Assembly (NCBI GenBank): GCA_965178125.1
Contig: OZ237772.1
Span: 248,001 to 312,000 of the forward strand
Reading direction: 5' to 3'
DNA length: 64,000 bases
Origin: Bilabrum cf. latius
Lineage: Eukaryota
Part shown: in pieces, positions 1,282 through 45,639 of the stretch
Position numbering within the stretch: position 1 is the first letter of the stretch
Layout: every line of letters begins with the position of its first letter
Program-made: the position numbers and the translations under genes
Notes under the pieces: model-generated
Told to the model about the DNA's origin: nothing
The model's input: only the letters and a program-made list of their open reading frames with translations
The model's database searches: none

Positions 1282-3597
1282 ATGCGATCGAAGAAGAGCG
1301 CCCGAGAGCTCGAGTCAGATGGATCCGCACTTCAAGGCTCCATCAACCAGGGTGCAGGATGCCCTCCCTGCTCCCCAGCCAGAATCATTGTTGATATCGA
1401 TGAACCATAGGGTCTGTCGAAGATGGGGTTCGGGGAGGCCATCGCGGACGACTACTAGAGACGGTGTGTTCACTTCGTGTCCGACTACTGGGGTTCGGAC
1501 GTGTGGACAGGGCTGACGGCATCGAGTACCATCACTATATTTCTAGCAACATTTGCGTCTACTGTTGCGCTGAGCGAGCTCGCGCGGTAGACTTGCGGGC
1601 AGTACATTGGGGCCACTGAGTACCTGCTGCTCAACAGCGTGGCTGGTATTATCCATTCAATTTTTGGGTGCCAGCCGTTCCTAGTGCTTCGTCCCACCGG
1701 ACCGATCACTTCGTTTATTCAGGAGATCTACAAGCTCTCCCTGCAGCTGGGCGTTTCGTTCCTGCCGTTCATGAGCTGGATCGGGCTCTTTGTGGGAATC
1801 TACATGTTGCTCGTTGCCGTGTTTGGGGGCTCCCACTACATCACATACTTGACGCGATTCGGTCACGACATGTTTGCTTTTTTTGTGTGCACGATATACA
1901 TCGTGGACGGCGTGCAGAACACGGCGAACCGCTTCGCCGTCGACCCGTTCGCAGAGGCTCTGTTCGAGCTGCTCATCTTTTTGCTCGTCGTGGCACTTGC
2001 TCTGTTTTGGTCGCAAGCCCAGGACTGGTCCACGGGTACGAAGGCCGTCCGCATCGTTACGGTGGAACTGGCGCTCACAGCAGCTGTCCTGGTGGGTGTT
2101 GCCGTGAGCTACTCGACGAATAGAACCGATGTGAACCGAGTGCTGATGCCTTCCTCCTTCTCGCCCACCGGATTCCGAGTCCCTCTGCCCGTCAACGAAT
2201 CGGGATCGGCTCCGAGTCCGCACGACCCCGACCCGGACCCGGACAAAGACTATCATCACATCCCGCGGCCCTGGTTTGTTGGCCTGCAGGCCGGGGGCAG
2301 GTGGGCGCCAGAGTCCGAGGCGGACAGGTGGAGGGGCAACGATGGTCGCGGTGCGGGTGGTGTGACGAGTACTGATGGCGTGACGAGTGAGGTCTGGGAG
2401 GGATTGCCGGGCAGCTCGGCGACGCCCAGCTGGCTGCCGGGCGTGGCGGCAGTTGCGGCCATCCCAGTGGCTGCGTGGTTCTACGTAGACCAGAACATGA
2501 GCAGCCTCTTGACCCAGACGCCCACCAGGGGACTCAGGAAAGGCTCGTACTACTCCTCTAGCTTCCTTGTTATGGCTATCCTCAACATGGTGGCTCCCAT
2601 GTTTGGCCTGCCCTTCGTGACTGGCAGCTTGCCGCACAGCCCCTAGTTCGCCATCGCGCTGACAGATGACCCCAACCAGCACAGGGACGATGAGGACAGC
2701 AAAGCATCGGAACTCGGGCAAGCCGCATCTTTGTCTTCGCATGCTGACAGTGAATAGACCGGTACTATTCGCAAGAGAATCTCAGTGCACGGTACCTATG
2801 AGATGGTGGACGAGCACGGCAAGTGGAGAGATACGGGAGAACCCGCCCCCCAGGGGATTTCACCCCCCGGTGCGGGGGCACCGTAGGTTGCAACCGCAGC
2901 CATCTAGAAGGAGGGAGCACCTCCTCAGAAGCGCGTGCACGAAAACAGGTGGGCGCCCATCCTCATGTACCTTCTGATCGGCCTGACACTCACCGTGCCA
3001 AGCGTGCTCACTGCCATTCCGGACGGGGCTGTGAATGGCATCCTGACGTACGTTGGGCTTGCAGGGCTATTTGTGGACAATGACCTGTACACCAGGATGT
3101 GGCTGCTGTTCGGGACCCCCACTCCAAAGCAGAGGAAAGAGCTCCCTTTCACTGACGAGCGGGTGGTGACCCGCTGGAAGATGCACCAGTTCACGGCCAT
3201 CCAGGTGCTTTTGATCGGAGCTAGCTGGGGCATCAAGGTCAGTCCCGCGGGTCTGGCATTCCCAATTGTAGTGTGCTGTTTCGTGCCGATCCGTGCGTAT
3301 TTGCTCCCGATGCTTTTCTCCGAGGAGGAGCTGGAGGCTCTGGATCGCGAGGGCGAATACGAGGAAATCGTGCCTTCACACCACCACCACAATCATCCGC
3401 AGCAGGATGACATTGGGGACGATGACCGTACTGGTGGGGTCACAGGTCCAATTGATGGCTTGCCCCGCGGTTCTGGTGGGCATGGAAGGCGCGCAACGGG
3501 TAGAGATTGGGTGTCTGCCGGTGATGAGGACGGGGGTCTTGATGACGGTTCAGATGCAAAGCCATCGACCCCGCTGATCTCAAGTAACGGGCGGTGA
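1282..3597 (+). CDS. SLC4-family bicarbonate/borate transporter (771 aa with TAG=Gln)
   Basis: One continuous frame across 7 TAG codons ending at TGA; motifs GCQPFLVLRPTGP, YLTRF, YVDQN, LRKGSYY, FGLPFVTGSLPHSP(Q)F, VHENR. Confidence 0.9.
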
Positions 3598-4067
3598 TTA
3601 GAGCCTAGGGGTTTTGGAAATTTCTTGGCAATTATTTGCATTATTTTCTTGTGTTTCGACTTATGCTTACCTGTAGAGCAAACGTCAAGGCACACGATAC
3701 AATGTACTCTTCGTGCGGCGTCGTGACGAGTGCGGAAGCTTCGCGGAAAGCTCTTCTCAACGGCAAGCATCCCTCGAGCATACACGCGTGCTGTCTGGCA
3801 AATAAGGAAAAAAATGATAACTCCGATTGTTTTTTGCGCTATCCCGGCCCTTGCTTTTCAGTAGCATCTCCAGGTCCTCGAGGAAGCATCGTCACTTATT
3901 GAAGCAAGGGTGAGGCAAACACCAATGCCTGCACTGATGTTCAATTAATCCTATGCTTAACCACACCAGTATAATGAATATATGCCTGTCCCCACGGTTT
4001 ATGGAGATATGGGGCTTGCAATTTTCGAAAACGTGCGATTGAGGTTTGCTCCTTACCCGCTCGCTCG

Positions 4068-4371
4068 TTGCAGATCCTCGATCGAATGCCAGGTTTCTCT
4101 GGCATAGTCTCGAGCAATGCGCGTAGACTTGACCAGCATGTATCTGGAAGTCAGGAGCTCCGCAAACATACGGATCGGGTTGCTGCGCTCACCAAAGACG
4201 ACCCGTCGGCCTACTGCAAGCAGCACCCGGAAGCTGGCTGCTGCAAGCAGCTCCAGCCGGTGCTTGACGAGTGCGCGCCCTACTTTGGCAAAGACCCTAG
4301 CCCGCAGAAACTGTGTCCTTCCGACTGCGCCGCCAAGCTTCGTGTCCTGGCAAAGAGCCTCCCTGCCAGCG
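4068..4371 (+). pseudogene. 5' part of a host Cys-rich protein gene interrupted by the virophage insertion
   Basis: Frame ...KLRVLAKSLPAS rejoins in frame with GERDGVCASAIQG... at 29188 after removing the element and one CAGCG; true start or upstream exon uncertain. Confidence 0.75.
4367..4371 (+). repeat. Target site duplication, left copy (CAGCG)
   Basis: CAGCG directly precedes TG at 4372 and directly follows CA at 29182. Confidence 0.9.
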
Positions 4372-4472
4372 TGTTATCCGCCAAAATGTGTGTAGTTTTT
4401 ATATAAGTAAACTCTATTTCTACTATATAGTAGAAATAGAGTTATCATAACTCCACATTTTGGCGGATAACA
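4372..4472. other. Left terminal 101-bp imperfect hairpin
   Basis: TGTTATCCGCCAAAATGTG/CACATTTTGGCGGATAACA outer stem, perfect inner palindrome AACTCTATTTCTACTATATAGTAGAAATAGAGTT, asymmetric internal loop. Confidence 0.92.
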
Positions 4473-5904
4473 TAAGAGGTCAATATTAACCACTTCACAA
4501 CATCTTAAGCCGTAGTCCTTCATAATGTCCTTCACTTGAACATAATAATTTAATAGCTATTTATTCATATATCTACCTAATTTAATACCTTCGCGCCGTT
4601 AATGTCTATCTGTTAGACCTTTACTTTACTTAATCTGTTGAGTGAATCCCTAGCCTAAGTCTTAGGATATGCCCGCCCGAAATTGCGGAAATATATAGTC
4701 ATTTAAGAATATATGTTCGCAATTCTGGGCGCGTAGGTGTATTGAGTTTTATATTATGATTTGGTTTTAAGTATCAATTGACATTTACCACTTTAGAAAA
4801 TAACTAAATAAATACTTAAAGAGATTGACAGAAGTATTAAAGTCTTTTTAATACTTCCAATGAAAAATTTAAATTAATAAATAAAACTAAACTAATATAT
4901 CAACTTAATTTATCTCTTTTTTTATTACTTGTCAATCTATACTTAAATAATTGAATATTTAAATATAACTAGAAGGAGATATTAATCACTTTATAAAGTC
5001 TTTTATATGTCATCTCTTCAAAACTTCAAATATAAGGGTATCCCCTTAAAAATACATTCTTTTATCTATCGCCCGAAATTGCGGTAATATTATAGCTATT
5101 CAAGATATATTTCTGCAATTCTGGGCGCGTAGGTGTATTGATTTTTATTTTTCATAATTCTTTAAATATGTTAAAGTCCTTTGTTTGAGTATATGATATA
5201 AAGGAATACAAAGCGGGATAACTTAAAAATGATAAATGTTTTGACGATGACTTTAAAATGACTCAATGAACTGGTTTATGTCAAGTGTATTACTTTGAAA
5301 TGATTAATCACTAGATTAAATGGAAAATATAGGATAATAAAATATGGTATAGTATAATACTAGCGCCCGAAATTGCGGTAATATATTAGGATATTAAGAT
5401 ATATTGTCGCAATTCTGGGCGCGTAGGTGTATTGAGTTTTATATTTTGTTAATTTTGACATAGTTATCTTATAGAGGTGTAATTTTGTAATAAAGATATT
5501 TCTAGTATGTGCTATATTAAATGTCCAGAAATGACGGCCCGAAATTGCGGAAATATATTAGGATATTAAGAGATATTGTCGCAATTCTGGGCGCGTAGGT
5601 GTCTTCAATAATTAATAATCAACTACTTCTTTATTTTGATTAATTTTTTTGACTTACCGTTCATTTTATTGACCACTTAACGGGATATCACAAAAAGACT
5701 TAACCACTTGACGAGATATTTTAAAATAACTAATAATAAATATGACCGCCCCAAATTGTATCTCCAGATATGACCGCCCCAAATTGTATCTCCAGATATG
5801 ACCGCCCCAAATTGCGGAAATATATAAGTATCAAGAAAATTATGTTTGCAATTCTGGGCGCTCACCCGTATTCAATTTTACATATTCACTAACTCATACC
5901 ACTT
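4372..5904 (+). repeat. Left terminal inverted repeat (1533 bp)
   Basis: Reverse complement of 27678-29182 apart from the asymmetric hairpin bulges and one extra 28-bp unit. Confidence 0.92.
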
Positions 5905-6095
5905 GAAGTGGTCCATTTGATCTTGTGTTCATATTTAGAATGTCCTTTAACTTGTATCAATGTATTGAGTACTTCTTCTAACTAGTCCTTAACAAATGAT
6001 TTTGTCTTATGATATGTCTTGGTAGTCTTCACCTATTTAATAACTAATTTACAAGTCTTACCGACAATATACTAAGTTAATAAATCTTGTATCAT
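5886..6095 (-). CDS. Small viral hypothetical protein (69 aa, TAG=Gln)
   Basis: ATG in AT-rich context, open through TAG codons to TGA; divergent from the 6104 gene. Confidence 0.5.
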
Positions 6096-6103
6096 AATAT
6101 ATT

Positions 6104-6511
6104 ATGTATGAGATAATTATTGATGGATTCAAATATAAACCCTCTACTCGTAGAAATAAGAAATATGATGTATTCAAAAATGGTAAGTATATCACTAGCT
6201 TTGGTGATGCACGATATGCTCAATACTTTGATTTGATTGGTAAGTATGGAGATAATAACCATATTGACCCTAAAAGACGACGCCTATACTACCGAAGACA
6301 CGGGAAGACTACCGATACTAATAGCTCAAAATATCACAGTCATAAAATCTTATGGGGAAGTGATAATGCTATAAAGGACTACTTAACAAAACTAGCCAAT
6401 GGAGTATTAGATGTAAAAAGGTATGTTAAAGGGGATACTTTGGAAAAATGGTTAGATGACTATAGGTCTAAAGTGGACGCAAGACTGAAACAATTAAAAA
6501 TATTAAATTAA
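6104..6511 (+). CDS. Basic viral protein resembling a small conserved NCLDV/virophage family (DUF5754-like)
   Basis: PSTRRNKKYDV...SFGDARY..Y...H.DPKRRRLYYRRH...ILW pattern recalled from large-DNA-virus proteins; TAA stop. Confidence 0.6.
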   Translation: MYEIIIDGFKYKPSTRRNKKYDVFKNGKYITSFGDARYAQYFDLIGKYGDNNHIDPKRRRLYYRRHGKTTDTNSSKYHSHKILWGSDNAIKDYLTKLANGVLDVKRYVKGDTLEKWLDDYRSKVDARLKQLKILN

Positions 6512-6668
6512 AAAGTCAATACGCCTAAACGCCCAGAATTGCGAAAATATATCTTGAATAGCTATAATATTACCGCAATTTCGGGCGCCCAAATTTGAAT
6601 CGAGCTTAAGACATCTCGTTTAATTAGACTTAAAAATAATATATTATTATAGTATATACTATATTATA

Positions 6669-7202
6669 ATGTGCTATAAATGTCGTAACTTCATAATCAA
6701 TAAGCTAAAGATTAATGACTGGAATAAGATAGCCCCTCTATTAATACCAGCTGGAGAGACTAGAGAAGAAGACGGAAAGTGTATCTGTGATCACCAAATT
6801 AAGGAAGTTCATTTCGTTGAGTATCCCCCAACTGGTGATATATTTAAATTAGGTTCTGAATGTATTAATAACACATTCGAAAAGGATCATGATGTGTATA
6901 AGGCTTGTATGTATAAGACTTGTGATGTATGCTCTTGTGTTGTTAAACGTAGTAGCTGGAAAAGTCATATTAAATCCATTAAACACGAATTAAATAAAGA
7001 CATATTAAAAGATAAGAGTAGATGCACTGATTGCGATGAGTTCATTGAAAAACATCAATATAAAAAGACTTGTCTTAGTTGTTATAATAAAAAGAGGAAA
7101 TACTCACAATGTAAGAAATGTGAAAAGTATCTTATTAAACCAGGAGCCACTTTCTGGTTTTGTTATGACTGTAACTAGAAGAGAAAGAAATATAAGAAAT
7201 AA
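6669..7202 (+). CDS. Multi-zinc-finger viral protein
   Basis: CICDH...GSECI, C2H2-like CDVC...HIKSIKH and several CxxC pairs; reads through TAG 7176 to TAA 7200. Confidence 0.75.
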
Positions 7203-7242
7203 TGTTTAATTTACGCCAACATATTATATCGTCTTTATATAT

Positions 7243-7476
7243 ATGTACGACTTGAAAATTATAATGTCTCCCAAGTTTTTAAAAGCTTGTAAAAATAATA
7301 AAGTTATTGAAAAGGCTATAAAAGCTATAGAGGACAATTTAAAAGATGAAATTAAATTATGTTTTGATGGCAATGAGTGGGATATGTCAAATGGATCATA
7401 GACTCTTTTTTATAATCTTCAAAGTAAAGAAGAACGAGAAGAAATATTAAAGAAAAATGGAACAATTACAGCATAA
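7243..7476 (+). CDS. Small viral hypothetical protein (77 aa)
   Basis: Preceded by CGCCAA...TATATAT motif; one TAG; TAA stop. Confidence 0.6.
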
Positions 7477-7562
7477 ACAACTAGAAGAAATAACAGAAGA
7501 CAATATGTTAAAAAATCGTTTAATTAACGCCAAAATTTATATCTACTATATATATAGTAAAT

Positions 7563-9218
7563 ATGACTAATAAAGGCAAGACATACACTAGAGGTAAAAT
7601 ATCTTACACGTATGGTGATGAACCGACAAAAAATCAAAAAGATAGTGATAATTTAGAAGCCACTATTAAGGGACTACTTGATAAAGGATTTGAAGAGGTA
7701 CCAACTACCAAAGCAAGTATTAAAAAAATACCTTTATATTCTTATGTATCTTATGTAAGTAATATCAAGGGAAAGCCACTATTTAGAAGAGGTGGGGTAA
7801 TTAACTCAATATAGAAGGATGGAGACTATTTCACTTTATATAACTTAGTGAGTCGTGTTCATTTTAGCGTTCAATAGTCTAACCTAGTTCGTCTTTTTTA
7901 TAAGATGACTAAAGCTTAGACGAAAAAACTTAATAAACCAACCGGTAAATTAATTGAAGTAGAAGATGAGGACGACAAAGACAAATTTAATTATAAACCA
8001 ATATTAAAGAAACTATATTATGAAGAAGGTAATGTAGTCAGTCGTGATGCGTTATATGACCTAGCTAGACAAAAAGATAAACGTATTAAAAGACGACAAG
8101 TAGAAAAGTGGTTAAATAACTAGATGCTCCACCAATTGACCAAAAAACGACCTAAACAGTCAGCAGTAAGTTCTTTTGTACCTACTAAGCCTTTCTCAAT
8201 TTACGCCTTGGACTTAATAGACATGCAAAAGTATTCAGACACTAATGACGGCTATAATTGGATATTAAATATAATGGATATATTCACAAAATACCTATGG
8301 AGTATTTCATTAAAAGATAAGACATTAGTTAATATAATTCGTGAGATGAAGAAACTATTTAAGAAACCTAATTGGAGAAAACCGACTGTTATGTTAAGTG
8401 ATAATGAGTTTAATAAAGAGGCATATATTAAATTTATGAATGACAATGACATAAAACCACTATTCACCATCGCAGGAAATCCATAGTCTAATGGTGCAGT
8501 TGAAAGACTTAATAGGACTATAAAAGAATAGATTAGAAAAGACTTTGCTATTAAGAATGACAGTGATGGTGTTTGGCATACGTCATTATAGAGACTAGTA
8601 AGAGCATATAATAAGAGAAAACACAACACTATAGGAATGTCTCCACTAGAAGCAATGAAACCCGAAAATTTAGAAGTAGTTAGATCTAGAATTGAAAATA
8701 AGAAATTATCAAATAATTTTGACGGGAATGATAAAGATCTTAATGTAGGGGATAGAGTTAGAGTATTACTTGAGAAGAACAAGTTTAAAGGAAATTTATT
8801 TAATTGGTCTAGAGAAGTCTTCACTGTTAGATAGAAGACCAAACCAAGAAATCCTAAGTAGAGGATTAAATATAAAGTAATGGACAAAGAGGGAGAACCT
8901 CTTACTGGATTCTTTAATGCTTCACAGTTATAGAAAATAGACAATGTAGAACACGAAGATAAGGTAAATGATGACATAGACAAGGAAAGTGAAGAGCCTG
9001 AAATTGATAATGTTGAAGGTTTAGAAGTAGAACCAGACACAATAGAGAAGTTTTTAGATAAAAGACAAAATAAAGATAGACTTATTGAATACTTAGTCAA
9101 ATATAAGGGATATTCTAATAAGTTTAATGAATGGATTACCCGTAAGAAATTAGAATAGGATTATGGGAAAGACCAAATACGACCACTTGCGAAAGACTAT
9201 TCTGATAGATAGAGATAA
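7563..9218 (+). CDS. Retroviral-type (rve) DDE integrase with C-terminal chromodomain (551 aa)
   Basis: Single frame through ~12 TAG codons; YALDLIDM, MLSDNEF, NP(TAG=Q)SNGAVERLNRTIK; chromo-like IEKFLDKR...EYLVKYKGYSNKFNEW; TAA stop. Confidence 0.95.
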
Positions 9219-9448
9219 TTAATCTAGTAATATACTTTATGGCATAATACCAGCGCCCCAAATTGCGATAATATATTAGGATATTAAGATATATTTCCGC
9301 AATTCTGGGCGCGTAGGTGTATTGATTTTTATAATTTTATCATTTTATGTTAGCCAGTGTATAGATACGACTTTTGAAATATTAATTTTTTCTAGTATTT
9401 ACCATATTAATATAAAACAAAGTCAAAGAAATTATTTATAATAAGTAT

Positions 9449-10129: not shown

Positions 10130-10148
10130 CCACTATATATATAGGTAA

Positions 10149-11280: not shown

Positions 11281-11436
11281 TTCTATATATATATAGTAAA
11301 TATTTTTTGGCGGAATAATTAAACTTAGGATCTAACCGCCCGAAATTGCGGAAATATTATAGCTATTCAAGATATATTTGTGCAATTCTGGGCGCGTAGG
11401 CGTATTGACTTTTGTATTATTTTGTATTTATTTGTA

Positions 11437-13084: not shown

Positions 13085-14527
13085 TTAAAGACTTCTTAAT
13101 CTTGAATCTAACCAAGATATTAGAGTATCAAGTCTCTTATTAAGACCTGAACCTTCACCAGTCTTACTTTCACTTGCTCCACTAGATGATTGACCTTGTG
13201 CTTCTTGTTCTTGTTCTTCCCGTTCTTGTGCTGCTCGTGCTGCTCTTGTTCTTGCTTCTTGACCTTTACCAAGATCTTCACCTGCATCGCTTGCTACAAA
13301 TTCTCCATCTGGTTGTCTTTCTAATAGTGTCCCTTCTGTCTCATCATCTAAAGGTTCATTACCTCTTGCTATCTATTCAGCAGCTTCATTCATTACATCA
13401 CTTAATGCGGCTTCTCTTCGTAAGTCTGGATCTTTTTCCTTAGCTCGTCTAAGTCTTTCTTTAAGTGGAGTTCCTGACGGTTCTGCACGACTAAATGGGT
13501 TTGTTTGTCTTTTTCTAAGTGATAATTGTCTTTCAATATCTTTCTTTGCGTCATCAAACTTGATTCTATTTAAATTTACAAATCTAGTTTTACTGTCAAG
13601 TCCCGATTGTCTTCCAGTCTTAATATCTTGAAATAAGCTCTATAAATCATAATACTACATATCATCTATTGGCACACCATCATATTCATCACCTAATAGT
13701 GCTTTAAGTCTATCTTTTAGTACTGGTGCTTTAGATGTGGCTTTTGTTTTATAAATATCATTTATTGCTTCCATTCTTTTATTAAGTACATCTCTTTTTA
13801 GTTTAACTCGATCAGTTTGGCTTCGTAATCGTTCCAAAGCATAGCCTTTTGACTTTTTATCTCCTAATCTTTCTAATAGAGGTACTATTTGTGTTCCTTT
13901 TGCTCTTTGTCTAACTTTTACAAGTCTTGATGCCATTGAATTAAGTTGAGCCTTAGAGAGACCATTTAAAGTTGAATCACTTACACCTCTCTCTTTAAGA
14001 AACTTCTTCAACTAGTCTACTGTTAAGTCATTCTCTAAGTCTTTGACATCTTTAGGTAAATTGTCTATCTCTTCTGCTTCAATAAATAAGTTATTTAATG
14101 CGTCGTTAAGTTTTGACTCAGCTTTACCTTTTTGAAATAGAGTATTAGATGAGTTCATATATGGAATATTCTATATCATCTTAGCAATAGCTTCAGCATC
14201 TTCATCAAGTAGTTCATTATCTTTAGCTAGTCTTACAACTTGATCTATATCTGCTACTTTATACTTTTTACCTTTCTTACTGTTATCTTTAACTCTTTTT
14301 AAAGTCCTTTTCATAAGATTTGCTATTCTTTTTAATTTTCTCTTTTCTTCTAATGGCATAAAGTCCTCTTCTAATTGAATTTTTTGTTTTCGTTTAGCTT
14401 CTCCTATAGCTGCTCTTATGGCTCTCTCTTCGTTTCTTACCTTTCGTCTTGCTTGACTTGTAGGGGCTCTACTTTCCACAAGTCCATCGAGTAAGTCTTC
14501 CAATACTGCTGTTCTTTTTTTAGACAT
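13085..14527 (-). CDS. Charged helical viral protein with SAP/HeH-like DNA-binding motif (480 aa)
   Basis: Single frame with TAG=Gln joining 14171-14527 and 13655-14011; LTVD(Q)LKKFLKERGV...LSKAQL. Confidence 0.7.
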
Positions 14528-14566: not shown

Positions 14567-15661
14567 TTACATACCATTTTCTTTTAATATTTTACTTGCT
14601 TCTCCTAGACTTACGCCATACTTCTTCATTACCGCACTCACTAATTTACCTCTTGCTTTAGCTTTTGGATTAGGTTTCCTCTTACGCTTAGCCTTTCCAA
14701 GTCCTACAGTCTTAAGTGCAGCATCAAGAGGGACACCAACTTCAGGGGCTACAAACTTAAGACCTGTTCGTATTGCCTTTCCTACATTACTTTTAATACC
14801 TTTTTTAATTGTTCGCCCTACTTTCTTGAATTTACGACCTACTTTTTTAAAAAAGCGTCCAACTTTTGAACCACCTTGAACACCATTCATTTGATAGTCT
14901 TCAAATAATTCTGATCCTAACGCCGGATGGGGTTCGGTGTTGATGCCAGAGTGGGAGCGCGTGAACGTCTCGTTGGGTTCCGATGGCGGTTGCGACCGGG
15001 AAGGTGCGACCAAGCCAACGGATTGCTTGCGATGACGCGCATACCCTCTCTGTGTTCAGGAGAGGGGCGGAGATTGGGTAATTTTTGGGCGGTAAGATTT
15101 GGCGGAGTAGTGCACGTGCTCTTCCCAGCCCCGGTCAGTCCGGTCAAGGGTCGCGCACAGGCACAGCTTTGTCAGGTCTTGCCATGTCTGATTGTTAACG
15201 AGACTAGGTTGCGCGTACACTCTGGCATCATGATCCTAACGCCGGATGGGGTTCGGTGTTGATGCCAGAGTGGGAGCGCGTGAACGTCTCGTTGGGTTCC
15301 GATGGCGGTTGCGACCGGGAAGGTGCGACCAAGCCAACGGATTGCTTGCGATGACGCGCATACCCTCTCTGTGTTCAGGAGAGGGGCGGAGATTGGGTAA
15401 TTTTTGCCCACCCTCCCAACCCCCTCCTCCTCGGCGGAGTAGTGCACGTGCTCTTCCCAGCCCCGGTCAGTCCGGTCAAGGGTCGCGCACAGGCACAGCT
15501 TTGTCAGGTCTTGCCATGTCTGATTGTTAACGAGACTAGGTTGCGCGTACACTCTGGCATCAAAGTAGTTTTTGCTTAAATTCGTCTTTTAAATTGTTGA
15601 CTTTGGCATTAGAGGGTGATTTACCTAGTTGCTATAGTCTTTGTCTTATGAAATCGTCCAT
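14567..15661 (-). pseudogene. Basic virion core-protein-like gene interrupted by a tandem GC-rich insertion
   Basis: Removing 14912-15562 gives MDDFIRQRL...KQKLL-ELFEDYQMNGVQGG-SKVGRFFKKVGRKFKKV...ARGKLVSAVMKKYGVSLGEASKILKENGM; the insert begins with in-frame TGA. Confidence 0.8.
14912..15562 (-). mobile_element. Two head-to-tail copies (319 + 332 bp) of a GC-rich non-coding element, no TSD
   Basis: Units 14912-15230 and 15231-15562; 13-bp asymmetric inverted repeat TGATGCCAGAGTG/CACTCTGGCATCA followed by a short subterminal hairpin. Confidence 0.85.
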
Positions 15662-19011: not shown

Positions 19012-19371
19012 TATGACATATACCATAAATTTTTAGATATTGAAAATTGATATCTATAAGGTGGCCATATTAAAAAGACTAAAATATAAAAATGAATACG
19101 GGTACGCGCCCAGAATTGCGGAAATATATCTTAATATCCTAATATATTATCGCAATTTGGGGCGCTGGTATTATACTATATCTTAAGATACTAAATTTTT
19201 AAAATTTCGGAATATTGGATTTTTTCAATGAGTCAAATAATTAATAAAAACTTTTTCAAAAAGTCAATACGGGTACGCGCCCAGAATTGCGGAAATATAT
19301 CTTAAATAGCTATAATATTACCGCAATTTGGGGCATTAGACAAGACTTATTTTCTTGATAAATGTTATAGA

Positions 19372-22384: not shown

Positions 22385-22417
22385 CGCCAAAAAATATCCA
22401 CTATATATATAGTTATG
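22385..22417 (+). promoter_or_regulatory. Conserved viral promoter-like motif CGCCAAAAAATATCCACTATATATATAG just upstream of ATG
   Basis: Related copies precede starts at 7243, 7563, 11280(-), 22415, 23331 and 23921, partially 10149. Confidence 0.7.
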
Positions 22418-23195: not shown

Positions 23196-23929
23196 AAATT
23201 CAATACACCTACGCGCCCAGAATTGCGGAAATATATCTTAAATAGCTATAATATTACCGCAATTTCGGGCGGTCATATCTTAAGACTAGTTTATTACTTT
23301 CGCCAAAAAATATCCACTATATATATAGTAATGTCAGATTATTTAGACTTCCATTTAATTAAACAAGTTGATGATATATGTTTCACTGGTGTTGAATTCT
23401 ATTAGGGATATCGAATAACTCAAGGTGAACAGCTTAAACAACTTAATTACTTATTCGTAGATAACAAAAAGGATATTGATAAGTTTGTATCTATTTCATT
23501 TGTAAAAGAAGCAGATAAGGATGAGTTTGAGCTATTACTGGTTAATGAAAATGGAAAATTAGAAGACGACACAGATATATTTAAAACAGAGAGAGACCTT
23601 ATTAAGTACTTGAAAGAAATAGATTTAAACAAAAAAGACTATTCAAATGATGATGTTATGTTGTCAACATTTCCAATTATAATGATGAGCATACGAGATC
23701 TAGTAATCAATAGCAATATTGGTTCAATTGAGAGTATCAAAAAAGGTGATACAGATCAATTTGACCACTTGAAAGATAACTAAATAAATTCAATACACGT
23801 ACGCGCCCAGAATTGCGGAAATATATCTTAAATAGCTATAATATTACCGCAATTTCGGGCGGTCATATCTTAAGACTAGTTTATTACTTTCGCCAAAAAA
23901 TATCCACTATATATATAGTAATGTCAGAT
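23196..23929 (+). repeat. ~144-bp direct repeat (23196-23339 and 23786-23929): palindrome + promoter + ATGTCAGAT
   Basis: Near-identical blocks precede two otherwise unrelated ORFs, both starting MSD. Confidence 0.9.
23331..23783 (+). CDS. Viral hypothetical protein (150 aa)
   Basis: Promoter motif, one TAG, TAA stop. Confidence 0.7.
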
Positions 23930-24333: not shown

Positions 24334-27132
24334 TTAATTTTGTTGTTCTAGTGGATCATTATCCTCATCAACAAATAAAGCGGGGTCTAAGTCAACCTCT
24401 ATCTCTTCATCGGGTAATTGAACCTCTTCATCATCAACAAATATATCTACTTCACGAGTCTTTTTCTTGTTAGACCAGATATATTCCATCTCATCAATAA
24501 TATCCTAATTAAATTCTACATCATAGTTAATTTTCTTTTTCTTACAAGTCATAAATATGTCTTTCCCAAACATTGATTTATATACTTTAAGTATTTCGTA
24601 ATAAAGACCTTTATCAGTGGATAAGTCAACTTTACTTCTTCTTTGGCAGTCATACACTGTCCTATATTCATCTGTTAAGTCTTGATCTAATACTTTCTTT
24701 TTGATATTATAATCAAGATTAGTTCTTTTAAGACCTAAAGTATCAATCATCTTATTAAGTAAGACTAATTTTCTAGAACTAGACTTAGCATTGATAATAT
24801 CAAACTCGCCTTTATTAATTGCTTTCACAAGTAAGTGCTTATCATCTTGTCTAAAGAATTTATTGAAATTAAATAAATTAGATAACTTACCTTTATTAAT
24901 AAAGTACTCTTTGTATTTGTCAATATCACCTTCATCTAAGTCTAAATATTTATTAATCTTCTTGACATTAAGACAATTAATATCAAAATTTTCAAGTTGT
25001 TTTTCTTTAATGGTATCTTTGATTTCTTTATCCTTACATCTGGTGATCTTAACAGATAAATCATAAGACACGTCATAACCGGTATCAATTAACTACTTGA
25101 TCATATGTAATTTAGGGTTTGTCTTATAACAATCTACCTTGTAAAGATAATTACGATATAGTTTTTTGAATATGATTTTAACTTTGCTCATTTCTTCTTC
25201 TACTTTGTCTTCTACTTCTACCTCGTTGAAGTCGGGATATGTATCACTGACAAATTTAACTAATTCTTCGTAGTCTTTTAAAGAGGTAGCCATAAAAGAT
25301 TTAACTTGTGAAAGACTTTCATATGTGCTAGATCGTCCTTTCTAGTAATCAAAAAATATAGTGATATGTGATGGGTTTCTACATCTGTTAAGCTATTGAA
25401 CCATTTGGGGAGGTGTGATAGTATGACCTTTGAAATAACCAAAGACTGGTCTAGTCATAGTGCTATCTATCCCGTAAATGACTTTAGGTGAGAAGATAAT
25501 GATATCAAACAAATCCATATCATAGTCTTTGTCTTCGCTTTCTGCTGTAAGTATTAAGATTTTATTTAATTTCTTATCTTTCTCGTTTTCTATTATTTTA
25601 AGACTAATTAACTCATTGATTATATCAGCTTTTGTCTTACTATCACTAGCAAGCATAAATTTCTTGTGTTTCATTAACTCATCTCTAAAAGTCTGTTCGT
25701 CATTAACAAATACAGTTTTGGTGCCCTTGAACCTGTTTCTGTCATTCCTAATATATTGATAATCTAATTTTAATAATTCTAAGAAATATAGAGCATCTTG
25801 AGATAAGTCAGCATCTGCTACTATGAACTACTTACAAGTGGTAAGAGCACGAATAAGAGTAATGAAACTCATTGGTCGCCTACCATATAAAGTCGTAGAA
25901 CTTAAACAGTGTTCTAAGATACTATTAAACTCATCTAAAAAGACAATATAATCCTTAAAGTTATAATTGCTAAGACTAACAATACTTTCAGGAGTAATAA
26001 CAATACTATCACCCTATTTGTATTTATGGTCTTGATAGAATTTAGTTGATTTTGGAAGACTACGCATCTATTGCTTACCTAATAAAATACGACTAACAAC
26101 TGATAAAAAGCTGTCATCTACTCTATTAAATAAATCATTAGCAGCAGTTGTCTTTCCAGAACCAGCCCCCGACTTAACGGCATAGTTGATACCTTTCTTA
26201 AAGAATTTAATATAACGACCTTTGTCGTCAGCAGTCAAATATCTACGGTCAATCTTCTAATTGACTTTCTTGACTACTTTATTCTTGAATATCTTGTATC
26301 GATAATATAGGCTAAGTCGTTTCTTTTCACTATCTAACTAATTAAAGAACCATTCAACACATTGAAAAGTGGAATTTTGTAATAATCGAGTAAAAATTAT
26401 CTTGTTCTTAGTCGACTAATAGCTTTCTACGTCTTGTTTGCTCCATTCATCAAATATATCATATACCTTATTACCATCTACTGGATTTAAGTATTTAGCG
26501 ATATAACTTGTAGCTCTACAAACTAGATGCCAGTTATATGAATTAGAATAATACTCTTTACCTAATTGATATAAGTATTGTTTGTATTCTTCGGGTTTAA
26601 TCATATAACGGTAGTCTTCAGCTGTAAGTTGTGGTGAATAGATATTTTGTAGTATGAACATCTTGACGTCAGTTGGTATTCTTTTCACGGATGTCTTTTG
26701 TATTAGTTCGTATTTCTTACCGTTGATAGAGCTAGGAGGACACATGATAAAGCTATCATTTGTGATCACATCTATATGTTCTTTTCTATTTACTGACCTC
26801 TTACTAAACTCTTCTTCATACTTAAAATACAAATGATATCCATTGGGAGACTTGACAGTGTAAGTATTCATCTCTTGAATAAACTTATCAACACTACCAT
26901 ATTCCGCAATAAACTTACCATTTTGAAATTCAGTTTTATTTTTCTCTTTTTCACAATCTAAGTCAAGGACAAAGAAACCTGCACGTCTTCCAGTAAGTAA
27001 TCCAACATTAAGATTTGACTTTCTGGTGATAAGTTTAGTAGATTCCAAATTCTACCAAGACTTAATAAGTGGTTGTTTAGAGTTGTGAGCTATTGAGAAA
27101 TAAACAGGGTTAGATATGTGTTCGGTCGTCAT
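24334..27132 (-). CDS. Prim-Pol primase/polymerase + PriCT + SF2 (origin-binding-protein-like) helicase fusion (932 aa)
   Basis: SKQPLIKSW(Q), NVGLLTG, FVLDLD, SPNGYHLYF; FDEWSK; KSGAGSGKTT, VVSRILL, FLDEFNS, ADADLS, SPKVIYGID, MVQ(Q)LNRCR; single frame to TAA. Confidence 0.88.
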
Positions 27133-27677: not shown

Positions 27678-29182
27678 AAGTGGTATGAGTTAGTGAATAT
27701 GTAAAATTGAATACGGGTGAGCGCCCAGAATTGCAAACATAATTTTCTTGATACTTATATATTTCCGCAATTTGGGGCGGTCATATCTGGAGATACAATT
27801 TGGGGCGGTCATATTTATTATTAGTTATTTTAAAATATCTCGTCAAGTGGTTAAGTCTTTTTGTGATATCCCGTTAAGTGGTCAATAAAATGAACGGTAA
27901 GTCAAAAAAATTAATCAAAATAAAGAAGTAGTTGATTATTAATTATTGAAGACACCTACGCGCCCAGAATTGCGACAATATCTCTTAATATCCTAATATA
28001 TTTCCGCAATTTCGGGCCGTCATTTCTGGACATTTAATATAGCACATACTAGAAATATCTTTATTACAAAATTACACCTCTATAAGATAACTATGTCAAA
28101 ATTAACAAAATATAAAACTCAATACACCTACGCGCCCAGAATTGCGACAATATATCTTAATATCCTAATATATTACCGCAATTTCGGGCGCTAGTATTAT
28201 ACTATACCATATTTTATTATCCTATATTTTCCATTTAATCTAGTGATTAATCATTTCAAAGTAATACACTTGACATAAACCAGTTCATTGAGTCATTTTA
28301 AAGTCATCGTCAAAACATTTATCATTTTTAAGTTATCCCGCTTTGTATTCCTTTATATCATATACTCAAACAAAGGACTTTAACATATTTAAAGAATTAT
28401 GAAAAATAAAAATCAATACACCTACGCGCCCAGAATTGCAGAAATATATCTTGAATAGCTATAATATTACCGCAATTTCGGGCGATAGATAAAAGAATGT
28501 ATTTTTAAGGGGATACCCTTATATTTGAAGTTTTGAAGAGATGACATATAAAAGACTTTATAAAGTGATTAATATCTCCTTCTAGTTATATTTAAATATT
28601 CAATTATTTAAGTATAGATTGACAAGTAATAAAAAAAGAGATAAATTAAGTTGATATATTAGTTTAGTTTTATTTATTAATTTAAATTTTTCATTGGAAG
28701 TATTAAAAAGACTTTAATACTTCTGTCAATCTCTTTAAGTATTTATTTAGTTATTTTCTAAAGTGGTAAATGTCAATTGATACTTAAAACCAAATCATAA
28801 TATAAAACTCAATACACCTACGCGCCCAGAATTGCGAACATATATTCTTAAATGACTATATATTTCCGCAATTTCGGGCGGGCATATCCTAAGACTTAGG
28901 CTAGGGATTCACTCAACAGATTAAGTAAAGTAAAGGTCTAACAGATAGACATTAACGGCGCGAAGGTATTAAATTAGGTAGATATATGAATAAATAGCTA
29001 TTAAATTATTATGTTCAAGTGAAGGACATTATGAAGGACTACGGCTTAAGATGTTGTGAAGTGGTTAATATTGACCTCTTATGTTATCCGCCAAAATGTG
29101 TGTAGTTTTTATATAAGTAAACTCTATTTCTACTATATAGTAGAAATAGAGTTATCATAACTCCACATTTTGGCGGATAACA
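27678..29182 (-). repeat. Right terminal inverted repeat (1505 bp)
   Basis: Reverse complement of the left TIR; lacks one 28-bp tandem unit. Confidence 0.92.
29082..29182. other. Right terminal 101-bp imperfect hairpin, identical on the + strand to 4372-4472
   Basis: Direct comparison of the two sequences. Confidence 0.92.
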
Positions 29183-29187
29183 CAGCG
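29183..29187 (+). repeat. Target site duplication, right copy (CAGCG)
   Basis: Matches 4367-4371. Confidence 0.9.
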
Positions 29188-30843: not shown

Positions 30844-33800
30844 TTACCCCCTTCTGCCAGCCGCAGCGTCCGTTTCCTGCCCCTCTGCTGCCCCCAGCTG
30901 CTATGCAGCCTTCTCAATGTTGCTGGCGAACTCGCTCACGACCACTCGCCAATCCGACTTCTTGCGCTTCATGGCGGGACGCCCGCCGCTTCCAGCACCG
31001 CCTGCACCCGATCTGCGGCCATCAGTGCCCTTGGATCTGCTGCTGCGGTCCCGGTCCCGGTCCCGGTCCCTGCCACGTCTCTCCTGCATGTCTACAGCGC
31101 GTTCTGCAAGAGACACCAGCCCTGGCCGCTCCACCGGCTTACGGCCCGGCCTGCCCGCCGCATGTCTGGATGGCATGTCTCTCGCTGTCGAGTCACGGCT
31201 GCCCCGCCGCGCGTATCCTGGTGGCCCGAGCCGGGCCCCGCCACCGACTCGGCGGCCGGCCGACTGCTCCTGGGCCCGTTGGCTCTCGCCCCTGCGTCCT
31301 CCTCGTCCACCTGCAGCGGTACTCGACTGGGCCCCTCCTCGTTGTGTTCCCGCCGGCGGTCTCCTGTGGCCTGGTCGCGGCAGCCTGAGCGGTTCCTGAT
31401 CCTCCTCCTCCTCCCCCTCTGCTGCTGCCGCTGCCTCGGCGCTGTGCTTGCTACGCATTGAGAAGCTCCTCGGCAGGTGCTCTGCTTGGGCCCTTGCTGC
31501 TGCCTTGCTGAGGTTCGGGTCAGACCGGTTGTGCGCGTGGTCACGACCCACTGCCATGATTACCACATCGTCACCGTCTTCCACCAGCTTGCGCCGCAGA
31601 GGCACGCCGTATTTCTCCATGCGCGGGTGCGGATACCCGGAGCTACCAACGTCAGAACCCCGGCTGCCGCTGCCCTCCATCCGCGGGGGGTCACCACCGT
31701 CCTAATACGGGCTGCGGGTGCCGGACAGCCGTCCGCCGAGAATGTCTGCCCCCGGGCTGTGCGGGGAAGAGGAAGACGGATGCTGGTGATACTGGTGCTG
31801 ATGAAGGGGATGAAGAGACCCTAGGTGCTTGTCAATTGGGGGTGTCAGTGCGCTGCCCAGACTTCCAGATGGACTCGCGCTTGATGGGCCCGACCTGTCG
31901 TTGAGTTTGGATGCCGCGCGTGGCGCGTGCTGCTGCTTGCTCTTGTGGTGTCCACCAGTCTCGTCTACCACCATGGCCACCGGCCTGCCGAGCTGCTTGG
32001 GGCTGCCATCACGCCGCTGGGCAAGTGTGAGGATCTGTGGCCCCGGTGAGGTGGCGTGCAGCCGGTGCTTGTCATGGTGATACCCCGAAGAAGGCGTCCC
32101 GTCAGGTGGCGTGATCTCGCCGTCGCTGGGTAAACCGTCCTTGTCGCCGATTTGCTACCTCCGTGGTGTCGTTGCCATCATCTTGGCGGAGGTTTGAAGC
32201 TCGTGCAGCTGAAGCCTAAGCTGGGCGATCAGCCGGTCCTTGGCAGCGATCTCCCTGTCGTGCGCCCGCCGGACCGCCTCTAAATCGGCCAACGCGCTCC
32301 GCAGTTTCTGCTGCAGCTCACGCTCAGCTGCCTCTGATGTCCGCAGAGCATCGCTCAGCTGCTGCACTCTTTGGCTCTCATCCGAGGTGGAACGCCTTGC
32401 GTCAGAAAGCCTGGCTTGGAGTGCTAGGTTCTCCTCCTCTCTGGCATCCAGGGTCCGTTGCGCGCTGTCAAGGCGTTTCCTCAAGTCAGCGATCGCGCCG
32501 TCCTATGCGCTGCTCCTCTTCCTCAGCTCGTCAGCGATGACCATTTGCTCGGATAGAGAGGCACGCAACCTGTCGGCCTCGCCGGCAGTCTCTTGCTTGG
32601 ACTCGCTCGCAGCTGCCACCCGCTGCTGCTCGTGCGCTAGCCGCTGCTGCAAGTCTTGCGCCGACTCGCGCGCAGCTTCCAGGGCAGTCTCTGCAGCGTC
32701 CCTGGCCAGCTTGGTCTTGCGAAGTTCTTCCGCATGCCCGTCTCGCTGGCGGTCCGCCTCTTCCCTAAGCCTCTTCTGCGCGTCGCGAAGCGCCCTGACC
32801 TCTGCTTCGGTGGTGGCAAGCCTCCGTTCGAGGGCGGTCTTCGCGTCCATCACGCGCTGCATGTCCTCGTGAGCTCGCTCCGCGGATCCGCCTACCGCAG
32901 CTTCGCGGGCGCGAGCCTGCTCCGCCTCGCTTCGCACCGCGTTCAGCTCGACGCTAAGCCGAGCAGCCCGCTCCCGTGCAGCGGCGTGATCGGTCCGAAG
33001 TCTGGCGAGATCGGAGGAGGATGCCTCCAGCTACCGTTCGAATGCCTCTGCGCGCTGCTCCATGGAAGCCACCTCTCTGCTGAGCTGCTCTGACTCCTTG
33101 CGAGCTGCATCGGCATGTGCCCGAGCTGTGGCTGCTTCCTCCCGGGCTCGCTGCATGTCGATCTGAAGGCCGTCTGCCCGCGCAGCCAGCAGCCGCTTCG
33201 CCTCGATCGAGTCGGACAGCTGCTTGTTCAGTTCCTCCACACGGGCGCTCAGCTCCGCCCGCCGAGCATCCACGCTGGCCAGCTCATCGGCTGCCTTGGA
33301 TTCAGACTCCTGCAGCCGCCTGCGACCCTCTGCTTCCGCTGCCCGAGTGGCCTCGTTCCGTTTCTCAGCTTCCTGCTCCCACTCGCGGAGCCTTACCTCC
33401 TGTCGCCCCAGCTGGGATCTCGCCTCCTCAAGCTCGCTCGTGAGTCGGTCAACGGCTACTTTCTGCTCGTCCACATCAGCCAAGGCCTTGTCGAGCTGCT
33501 TCTGCAGCTCCCTTTCCGCCTCTGCTTTCTTTCTCTGGGCATCCATGCCCTGCTCCCGAGCATCATCGGCCTCCTGCTGCCACCTCTGCGTCTCGGCTGT
33601 GGCCGTTTCCGTTGCTGCATTTGCTGCCTGCAGCTGTCGCTCCAGAGTACTGATCTTGTTTTCCAGTGCAGATGCATTGTCCGCAAGCACCCCCGACTCC
33701 GCCTGGTGTCGAGCAAGAGCTGCAGACCTCTCTGTGCGTGCTTGCGACAGCTCAGTTCTCAGCTTGGAGGCATCGTCCAGTGCCTTGTCCAGCCGCTCCC

Positions 33801-45384: not shown

Positions 45385-45639
45385 CGCAGAAGTAGATTGC
45401 GACAGACCCGAGACTTGATCCGGATGTGCACCAGATTTGGGTGTGCTTCTTTCCTTTAACTCCCAACTCAGGTCTGAAACACACGCTTCGTACCAACTTC
45501 GCAAGGCTTCTGTGGTACAATACCCTACTACCGGCCTCGGGCCTGCAAAATAAGATGGATAAGAAAGCGAGCAAAGGTTTCCACTCGAATTGTAACGTGC
45601 AAATGCAGGCGACTGTCGGTCGCAACGCCACTCTGTTCA

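Follow-up and report, generated by a model that had tools for sequence, protein, structure and literature searches.

A pPolB-less endogenous virophage in Bilabrum cf. latius with directly repeated imperfect palindromes capping its inverted repeats: possible flip/flop ends

Introduction

Virophages are small viruses that parasitise giant viruses. Integrated elements of the mavirus, EMALE and Polinton type are flanked by short target duplications of 3–6 bp, and mid-GC EMALEs are also without the family-B polymerase pPolB and carry a long primase/helicase ORF (PMC8547959, available in part). The string "palindrom" does not occur in the available part of that Cafeteria EMALE paper (PMC8547959). 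Most similar to the locus described here are the virophages and PLVs of Halocafeteria seosinensis, several subtypes of which have palindromes at the extremities of their inverted repeats, beside the target duplications (10.64898/2026.07.28.741278, preprint available in part). These terminal palindromes go preferentially with replication genes other than pPolB, and hairpin-primed replication has been proposed for them; the words "flip", "flop" and "orientation" are absent from the portion of the preprint text at hand (10.64898/2026.07.28.741278). Our keyword search of the literature returned no paper on virophages that also names a terminal palindrome, hairpin-primed or rolling-hairpin replication, or flip and flop.

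Hairpin telomeres are found in ASFV and chloroviruses as well as in poxviruses. Parvoviruses have ssDNA genomes of ~5 kb, encode an HUH Rep nickase, lack long inverted repeats past the hairpin and use rolling-hairpin replication. The incompletely paired hairpins of poxviruses occur in flip and flop forms, which arise when palindromic concatemer junctions are resolved; poxviruses have a documented resolvase and a promoter-like resolution site, which acts as a late promoter (PMC8956199, available in part).

Here we analyse a stretch of 64,000 nt of Bilabrum cf. latius (contig OZ237772.1), hereafter the window, and compare the ends of the element that it contains with these systems.

Results

An integrated virophage that reads TAG as sense

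The window contains an island of 24,811 bp (4372–29182) with ~31% GC, inside DNA of 55–70% GC. The flanks read ...ccagcg followed by TGTTATCC on the left and GGATAACA followed by cagcgg on the right, which gives TG...CA ends and a 5-bp duplication of CAGCG (Table 1). With the standard stop codons no ORF of the island exceeds 302 codons; when TAG is read through, ORFs of 942, 638, 564 and 484 codons appear, and all core genes of the element are open under this reading.

The predicted integrase matches the Pfam families rve (32.8 bits; cut-off 32.6) and Chromo (30.3 bits; cut-off 25.1) and transposase PHROGs (E 3e-11). The P-loop ATPase ORF has Pfam matches to AAA_10 (25.2 bits; cut-off 27.5) and AAA_22 (25.9 bits; cut-off 27), both below cut-off, and together with its position these weak matches suggest that it is probably the packaging ATPase. 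The putative protease call leans also on its place between the ATPase and the capsid genes, and the 308-aa putative penton ORF has no family match in Pfam or PHROGs. The major capsid protein (MCP) matches MCP_V20_C, of the Sputnik V20 type (30.4 bits versus a cut-off of 27; E 3.2e-7). The replicase is recognised by Pfam Prim-Pol (E 8.9e-14) and by phrog_4913 (E 6.9e-25). A profile of the replicase family searched against the PDB matched entries named "Replication origin-binding protein" in the helicase part (9hgj/9hgi/9zgf; E 1.3e-5) and the pRN1 ORF904 Prim-Pol at the N-terminus (E 1.3e-3); by this profile similarity, the helicase resembles the herpesvirus origin-binding protein (OBP).

None of 20 ORFs of at least 104 aa matches a family-B polymerase in Pfam or PHROGs, and the only replicase found is the Prim-Pol–helicase protein. 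With its capsid, integrase and Prim-Pol genes and without pPolB, the island is thus an endogenous virophage that lacks pPolB. A preliminary description made from the sequence had read it as an integrated virophage ending in TG...CA and devoid of pPolB; the 5-bp target duplication, the capsid and integrase genes and the ORF searches all agree with that reading. In Pfam, PHROGs and NCBIfam, the ORFs of the element gave no match to a nickase, an HUH/Rep protein, a Holliday-junction resolvase or a telomere resolvase, and 14 of them have no assignment; a resolvase could be supplied by the helper virus or the host. A 226-aa ORF after the integrase, faintly suggestive by eye of a GIY-YIG nuclease, was dropped as a candidate for want of homologue support: against 1.84 billion representatives it matched only itself and one 30-residue low-complexity segment. 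The GC-rich insert at 14912–15562 is foreign, probably a small repeat of the host that came to lie within the virophage.

TAG is a sense codon in the host too: a host ORF on the minus strand (30844–45636; 4930 codons) contains 36 TAG codons but neither TAA nor TGA. At the six TAG positions of the MCP, the two relatives of 86–87% identity have Q in eight of the 12 aligned cells (in both relatives at three positions, in one relative at two more, as Q/N and Q/E, the last position being R/T), so TAG most likely encodes glutamine. No tRNA gene lies in the window; hence the element bears no suppressor tRNA. The host gene for formate-tetrahydrofolate ligase is 59–62% identical to counterparts in many eukaryotes and equally in bacteria, and so points to no particular lineage. 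A literature search returned no paper on virophages in hosts with reassigned UAG.

Table 1. Coordinates in the window of the features of the element and its target-site duplication.
Feature	Position	Strand	Basis or remark
Left target-site duplication copy, CAGCG	4367..4371		Flank sequence
Left terminal palindrome, begins TG; 19-bp stem, 19/10-nt loop, 34-nt core	4372..4472	+	Repeat search, fold, run contigs
Left inverted-repeat arm, non-coding	4473..5904		Repeats I1, I4
rve integrase with C-terminal chromodomain, 551 aa	7563..9218	+	12 TAG as sense
GC-rich insert, two tandem ~320-nt units	14912..15562		D5, D7 100% copies; GC 0.44 bin
P-loop ATPase, 355 aa	17376..18443	+	Weak Pfam matches below cut-off
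Putative cysteine maturation protease, 182 aa	18463..19011	+	Peptidase_C57 E 0.0043, below cut-off
Putative penton/minor capsid protein, 308 aa	19372..20298	+	Position directly 5' of MCP only
Major capsid protein, 628 aa	20341..22227	+	6 TAG as sense; Pfam and relatives
Replicase, 932 aa; N-terminal Prim-Pol and SF2-type helicase	24334..27132	-	11 TAG as sense
Right inverted-repeat arm	27678..29081		Repeat search and comparison
Right terminal palindrome, ends CA; equal to left copy, equal orientation	29082..29182	+	Repeat search, comparison
Right target-site duplication copy, CAGCG	29183..29187		Flank sequence

Geometry of the terminal palindromes and inverted repeats

The terminal 101-nt sequences form a two-copy direct repeat with 100% identity (family D9 of the repeat search); they match as written, and neither is the reverse complement of the other. 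The adjoining sequence is inverted. Two inverted repeats, 4454–5786/27768–29100 (1333 nt) and 5768–5904/27678–27814 (137 nt), are each 100% complementary, with 4454–5739 corresponding to 29100–27815 and 5768–5904 to 27814–27678. The sole difference found between the arms of ~1.43 kb is an additional 28-nt tandem unit at 5740–5767, which suggests that the ends were homogenised or copied recently. The left arm contains five copies of a ~60-nt GC-armed hairpin motif. At either end the inverted repeat abuts the palindrome exactly.

The 101-mer has an outer stem of 19 bp (TGTTATCCGCCAAAATGTG / CACATTTTGGCGGATAACA), an asymmetric internal loop with 19 nt on the 5' side (TGTAGTTTTTATATAAGTA) and 10 nt on the 3' side (ATCATAACTC), and a core that is a perfect palindrome of 34 nt. 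As ssDNA it folds at -32.2 kcal/mol compared with -5.5 ± 2.0 kcal/mol in shuffles (z -13.3; 0 of 200 as good), and the 19-mer of the stem occurs four times in the window, always in the palindrome arms, compared with 0.00 expected; the folding and the recurrence of the stem are not due to chance. There is no third copy of the 101-bp unit within the 64-kb window. The apex of the palindrome, CTACTATATAGTAG, resembles the motif ACTATATATATAGT, which stands upstream of six genes. Promoter and terminator predictions of the sigma-70 type are no more frequent in the left repeat than in shuffles, and Rfam gave no match.

In this one element, the whole palindrome stands in duplex form at each end of the integrated copy, and relative to the inverted repeat one palindrome is in the flip and the other in the flop orientation. 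An incompletely base-paired terminal palindrome thus adjoins long inverted repeats, as in hairpin-telomere genomes. Writing H for the palindrome, T and T' for the arms, U for the unique part and H' for the reverse complement of H, the observed order is H-T-U-T'-H, whereas a plain element would be H-T-U-T'-H'; to bear a direct 101-nt repeat on inverted arms, a plain inverted-repeat element would need an extra event. The preliminary description had noted this geometry, with one and the same 101-bp imperfect palindrome in equal orientation at both ends and the next 1.4 kb inverted, and had taken it to suggest hairpin (flip/flop) telomeres. The repeat search and the direct comparison bear out the geometry, the loop sequences given in that description are exact, and the flip and flop forms are seen in the assembly, with both junction types present in the contigs described below.

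Contigs from public sequencing runs

The run data consist of de Bruijn contigs over positions 2900–8900 of the window, and the perfect core of 34 nt interrupts contigs of this kind. From each of two runs of organism A came a host-flank contig that is continuous from 2900 to 4398 (X1, 12.5 kb at depth 41.6; X4, 10.9 kb at depth 103.4) and reaches from the host flank through the outer stem to the eighth nt of the 19-nt loop. Since they cross this region unbroken, the left junction between host and hairpin is real; no empty-site allele interrupts the left-junction contig. In X1 and X5, contigs have their first position at 4454, precisely where the 10-nt loop gives way to the stem arm; a graph branch would produce such a start. 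In one X1 contig the stem and repeat at 4454 are preceded by AAAAACTACA, the end of the reverse-complemented 19-nt loop, as in the junction at the right end of the assembled element. The reads thus contain the inverted repeat next to either face of the palindrome, in agreement with the assembly; the geometry of this copy already needs both junction types, so the contigs do not prove that orientation varies among copies. Neither a fold-back nor a head-to-head junction appears among the contigs listed, which, as de Bruijn contigs, are interrupted at the palindrome core. The preliminary description had named an assembly collapse at the right end as a finding that would overturn its reading. On this point the run contigs, over the region 2900–8900 that they cover, confirm the left host junction and contain the loop–stem–repeat junction of the right type.

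Contigs of the unique parts of the element have depths of 781–1025 in X1 (host flank 41.6), 277–527 in X4 (host flank 103.4) and 11.6–13.9 in X5, so that the element stands at ~3–25 times the host flank and its arms at about twice the unique parts, although depth in contigs does not equal copy number and the GC contrast (31% versus ~65%) may bias it. The dominant contigs differ from the copy in the window at four sites (6373, 7056, 7511 and 8207). Depth and variant sites together indicate a family that is abundant, multi-copy and/or extrachromosomal, of which the copy in the window is a minority variant; the virophage family is thus active or recently amplified.

In organism B the element is present and the host flank of this locus is absent. 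Run X7 contains the host flank with a 164-nt GT..AG skip that looks like spliced RNA, and the interior of the element has depth 0. In the same run the hairpin halves (4369–4472) are joined on both sides to other GC-rich, host-like sequence, so there are further insertion sites or solo units.

Relatives and their ends

The 19-mer of the stem has no exact match in viral_contigs or metagenome_contigs, and no close relatives of the replicase or the MCP were found in viral_contigs. The only two relatives of the MCP (86–87% identity) lie on contigs of ~2 kb, too short to show termini. Distant relatives of the replicase were found at 21 loci in viral_contigs and at least 196 in metagenome_contigs, 80 of which were kept. 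A terminal palindrome occurs at one of 27 contig ends of the viral_contigs loci and at none of 133 contig ends in the 80 metagenome loci (scored there when the reverse complement of a 12-mer lying 6 nt or less from the end was found in the last 300 nt), counts that weigh little either way since most of these contigs are probably truncated. Clear inverted termini were seen in none of the replicase-relative loci examined.

The single positive end belongs to L015, an uncultivated viral contig of 25,983 bp with a replicase homologue at 25% identity. Its terminal 98 nt form a perfect palindrome with TG as first and CA as last letters, of which the opposite end of the contig has no copy. The contig extends 49 nt beyond the apex, a length equal to (99-1)/2, so the palindrome may come from k-mer read-through of a fold-back that is longer, or from faulty assembly.

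Comparison with described systems

The element shares with those of Halocafeteria an integrated virophage genome of ~24 kb with GC below that of the host, an rve integrase and a replicase other than pPolB (primase-polymerases are named there), according to the available part of the preprint (10.64898/2026.07.28.741278). As in that description, a palindrome lies at the repeat extremity beside the target duplication, together with a non-pPolB replicase and an rve integrase, the likeness being one of description (10.64898/2026.07.28.741278). The present palindrome differs in being imperfect, with a 19/10-nt loop from which orientation can be read, in standing direct at the two ends, and in its length of 101 nt versus 52 nt in the example given there; the host, with 55–70% GC and TAG as sense, differs as well (10.64898/2026.07.28.741278). 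With mavirus, EMALEs and Polintons the element has in common the rve integrase, inverted repeats, the virophage capsid module and its situation as a low-GC island in a GC-rich protist genome, as far as the accessible text of the EMALE paper describes them (PMC8547959). Unlike the mavirus/Polinton type, it has neither pPolB nor a plain inverted terminus.

Like poxviruses, as covered in the available part of the source, it combines an incompletely paired hairpin of ~100 nt with long adjacent inverted repeats rich in short repeats and with flip and flop forms, has primase-helicase replication genes with no protein priming, and carries a promoter-like element in or beside the telomere, here the apex sequence (PMC8956199). 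It differs from them in being known only as an opened duplex in a chromosome, with no Holliday-junction resolvase gene found, and in its 25-kb genome, retroviral-type integrase and target duplication. As in parvoviruses and AAV, the full palindrome is present in duplex at both integrated ends and each end is flip or flop; in contrast to parvoviruses, no HUH domain was found and the replicase is a Prim-Pol joined to a helicase. Non-coding "flip-flop" loops of plastid and bacterial genomes also present the interior of a stem-loop both ways between short inverted stems. Those inversions are rare, confined to single loci and without a role at genome ends, whereas the hairpin described here coincides exactly with the end of a mobile viral genome whose termini are of the integrase type.

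Discussion

Origin of the direct arrangement

The element is a recently active endogenous virophage of 24.8 kb whose true termini are the 101-bp imperfect palindromes. We consider it about an even bet (probability roughly 0.5) that its ends pass through a hairpin or palindromic-junction stage and that one end was integrated in the flip and the other in the flop form. The palindromes would then act as units separate from the 1.43-kb arms, each end being a folded hairpin or a single palindrome lying between inverted arms, and unfolding or resolving an imperfect hairpin would give two mirror forms, flip or flop. With one end in each form, a single strand reads as a direct repeat capping inverted repeats. 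Replication might be started by the Prim-Pol/helicase of the element, by analogy with the D5 primase-helicase of poxviruses, and hairpin ends would answer the end-replication problem; a Prim-Pol can start synthesis de novo, which makes priming by the hairpin dispensable. The DDE (rve) integrase would act at the CA-3' at the outer edge of either palindrome and insert an opened form, leaving the 5-bp duplication. As derived from the sequence, a repeat-palindrome-repeat junction would carry GGATAACA followed by TAAGAGG at either edge of the palindrome, once per strand.

Three routes could lead to the observed H-T-U-T'-H. In the first, the ends would be closed hairpin telomeres, with flip or flop drawn independently per end when T'-H-T is resolved; a nick at the CA-3' edge of the hairpins followed by fill-in would then give the direct arrangement in half of the integrants. 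In the second, parvovirus-like hairpin transfer on extended duplex ends would likewise give it in half. In the third, a single T'-H-T junction would be nicked at CA on both strands, 101 nt apart, and strand transfer and gap repair would always give the direct arrangement. For all three, the palindrome would have to exist as a hairpin or to stand only once, between the two inverted arms. Such an intermediate, the enzyme that would open it and a redrawing of orientation in each round are what we infer from this arrangement, and covalently closed virion ends and hairpin priming would be further features of the same scheme. With one element and one geometry, random flip-flop is not separable from a deterministic or inherited arrangement.

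The arrangement might instead have arisen in an ordinary inverted-repeat virophage whose palindrome is an integrase-binding or origin structure, if recombination or template switching between the 19-bp stems of one end had once inverted the 63 nt that they enclose and the result had then been inherited, with hairpins having no part in replication. Small inversions of hairpin cores between short inverted repeats are a known mutational class. Consistent with such an origin, Pfam, PHROGs and NCBIfam revealed neither a nickase nor a resolvase gene in the element, and its helicase appears to resemble an origin-binding protein acting on palindromic origins. Such an inversion is nevertheless a rare event for which the otherwise identical 1.43-kb arms leave little time, and the family is abundant and nearly uniform in the run contigs. 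Terminal palindromes also recur in other pPolB-less virophages and PLVs, at least as far as the preprint is available, which suggests a function at the terminus (10.64898/2026.07.28.741278). We therefore regard a one-off inversion as unlikely.

A second alternative keeps the palindromic junction and dispenses with flip-flop: in a circle or concatemer with a single palindrome between the arms, the integrase would nick after CA at both edges, and gap repair would duplicate the palindrome. The integrase-type sequence GGATAACA followed by TAAGAGG on opposite strands at both junction edges, the TG...CA ends and the 5-bp duplication all fit such a staggered cut, and contigs of organism B branch likewise at 4454, which is compatible with an equal arrangement there. 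Retroviral integrases are reported to cleave the palindromic LTR-LTR junctions of 2-LTR circles internally, in the accessible portions of two studies (PMC1905944, PMC1180852). Melting 101 bp between the nicks is demanding, though the palindrome can self-fold, and the model presupposes a palindromic junction, itself implying hairpin-type replication; on these grounds we judge it quite unlikely.

It is very unlikely that the 101-bp unit is itself mobile or solo, i.e., a MITE-like sequence with 19-bp inverted ends that the integrase would recognise or a solo-LTR-like relic, and that the element is of composite or recombination origin. The unit alone has TG...CA ends, and X7 joins hairpin pieces to other host-like sequence on both sides while the interior of the element has depth 0. 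The same junctions are equally expected from other full-length copies (host next to the 19-nt-loop side, and the 10-nt-loop side next to host), and no host-hairpin-host contig is among those listed, which break in the core. The inverted repeat also meets the palindrome exactly at both ends, with no extra copy in the window. Finally, although assembly and polishing are difficult for palindromes that lie within long, identical inverted repeats, a confusion of end reads that hides a right end truly reverse-complementary to the left is highly improbable, because the run contigs contain host-stem-19-nt loop and also 19-nt-loop side-stem-repeat, and the latter junction would be impossible if all copies had host beside the 19-nt-loop side at both ends.

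A broader form of the hairpin reading, which we put forward tentatively and think rather doubtful as it stands, is that pPolB-less virophages of the lineage with a Prim-Pol and an origin-binding-type helicase have linear genomes with pox-like flip-flop telomeres of incomplete pairing, perhaps resolved by the telomere machinery of the helper giant virus, and that the DDE integrase opens the hairpin or junction at CA. We know of no virus for which replication through hairpin telomeres has been described together with integrase-mediated insertion into a chromosome.

Implications for virophage biology

In kind, the element is a palindrome-ended, pPolB-less endogenous virophage, as lately reported in the preprint, so far as its text is available (10.64898/2026.07.28.741278). 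The new part is the flip/flop geometry, i.e., an imperfect palindrome whose orientation can record passage through a hairpin. A practical consequence of the genetic code of element and host, in which TAG stands for a residue, is that standard gene callers would miss every core gene, as these are open only when TAG is sense.

The question touched is how virophages and PLVs without a protein-primed polymerase copy their linear ends, and an imperfect terminal palindrome makes it testable from sequence, as orientation per end and per copy. If the flip-flop reading is true, it would provide a concrete substrate for the handling of hairpin or junction DNA by rve integrases, a reason why some endogenous elements seem to be without clean inverted termini in automated screens, and a mechanistic link between virophages and the hairpin telomeres of the large DNA viruses that are their helpers.

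Genetic code of the virophage and its host

The genes of the endogenous virophage (4372-29182) remain open only when TAG is read through, and the giant host open reading frame, 4930 codons long, contains 36 in-frame TAG codons with neither TAA nor TGA. TAG is a sense codon in virophage and host alike. At six TAG positions of the capsid protein, glutamine occupies 8 of 12 cells of the aligned capsid relatives, and the residue inserted at TAG in both genomes is probably glutamine. Our search for tRNA genes across the window found none. The product of the host frame is a giant coiled-coil protein with long tandem repeats that are near-identical to one another; it had no match in PDB at E 1e-20.

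Table. Coordinates of features in and around the virophage (window numbering unless stated)
Feature	Position	Strand
Host gene around the virophage, with the 164-nt skip	3909-4072 and 4086-4406	
Giant host open reading frame	30844-45636	-
GC-rich insert, between virophage genes	14912-15562	
Extra 28-nt tandem unit, left arm	5740-5767	
Corresponding point without the extra unit, right arm	27814/27815	
GC-armed hairpin motif, range of all sites	4719-28835	
GC-armed hairpin motif, example copies	9253-9312, 19106-19165, 23213-23270	
ACTATATATATAGT motif at six genes	7544-7559, 10131-10146, 11283-11297, 22399-22414, 23315-23330, 23905-23920	
Fixed differences in element contigs	6373, 7056, 7511, 8207	
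Terminal palindrome of L015 (L015 numbering)	13109-13206	

Recurrent motifs and structure of the element

A GC-armed hairpin motif of approximately 60 nt (GCGCCCAGAATTGC ... GCAATTTSGGGC) is present at 22 sites, all confined to the element and all intergenic, with fold z-scores of -3.5 to -5.4. Each inverted repeat arm carries five copies. In the unique part, the polarity of the motif is mirrored around the genome midpoint: four of the five copies to the left lie on the minus strand, and all seven to the right on the plus strand. This polarity is independent of gene strand. Hairpin signals of giant viruses mark 3'-end formation; the motif here could be a marker of 3'-end formation, or of replication or packaging polarity.

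A second motif, the palindrome ACTATATATATAGT, precedes the ATG by 2-5 nt in six genes, including that of the integrase, with 12 matches observed against 0.05 expected. It resembles a promoter or initiator element. The terminal hairpin has a shorter version of this motif, CTACTATATAGTAG, at its apex.

The two 1.43-kb repeat arms differ solely in how often a 28-nt tandem unit is repeated: the left arm has three units and the right arm two. The GC-rich insert comprises two tandem units of ~320 nt, in which blocks of 176 and 130 nt are 100% identical. It probably derives from the host, as a small repeat or transposon that inserted into the virophage.

A homologous Prim-Pol helicase is encoded by L015 (IMGVR_UViG_3300030390_001577), an uncultivated viral contig of 26 kb that terminates in a perfect 98-nt palindrome beginning with TG and ending with CA; this palindrome was absent from the other contig end.

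Insertion site and abundance in sequencing runs

The virophage is inserted within a transcribed host gene for a cysteine-rich protein. Just upstream of the insertion, 164 nt bounded by GT..AG are missing from a contig of the public run X7, indicating a spliceosomal intron. Over 4369-4472, X7 also contains halves of the 101-nt terminal hairpin fused to other GC-rich sequences, and its contigs leave the element interior uncovered. These junctions may represent other insertion sites seen via host transcripts, or solo 101-bp units.

Contigs of three further runs (X1, X4 and X5) were compared over 2900-8900. Depth, which for such contigs does not equal copy number, was 781-1025 for the element versus 41.6 for the host flank in X1, and 277-527 versus 103.4 in X4; the ratio is not the same between samples. 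Because the element contigs are far deeper than the host flank and differ from the window copy at four fixed sites, the virophage family is multi-copy and/or extrachromosomal.
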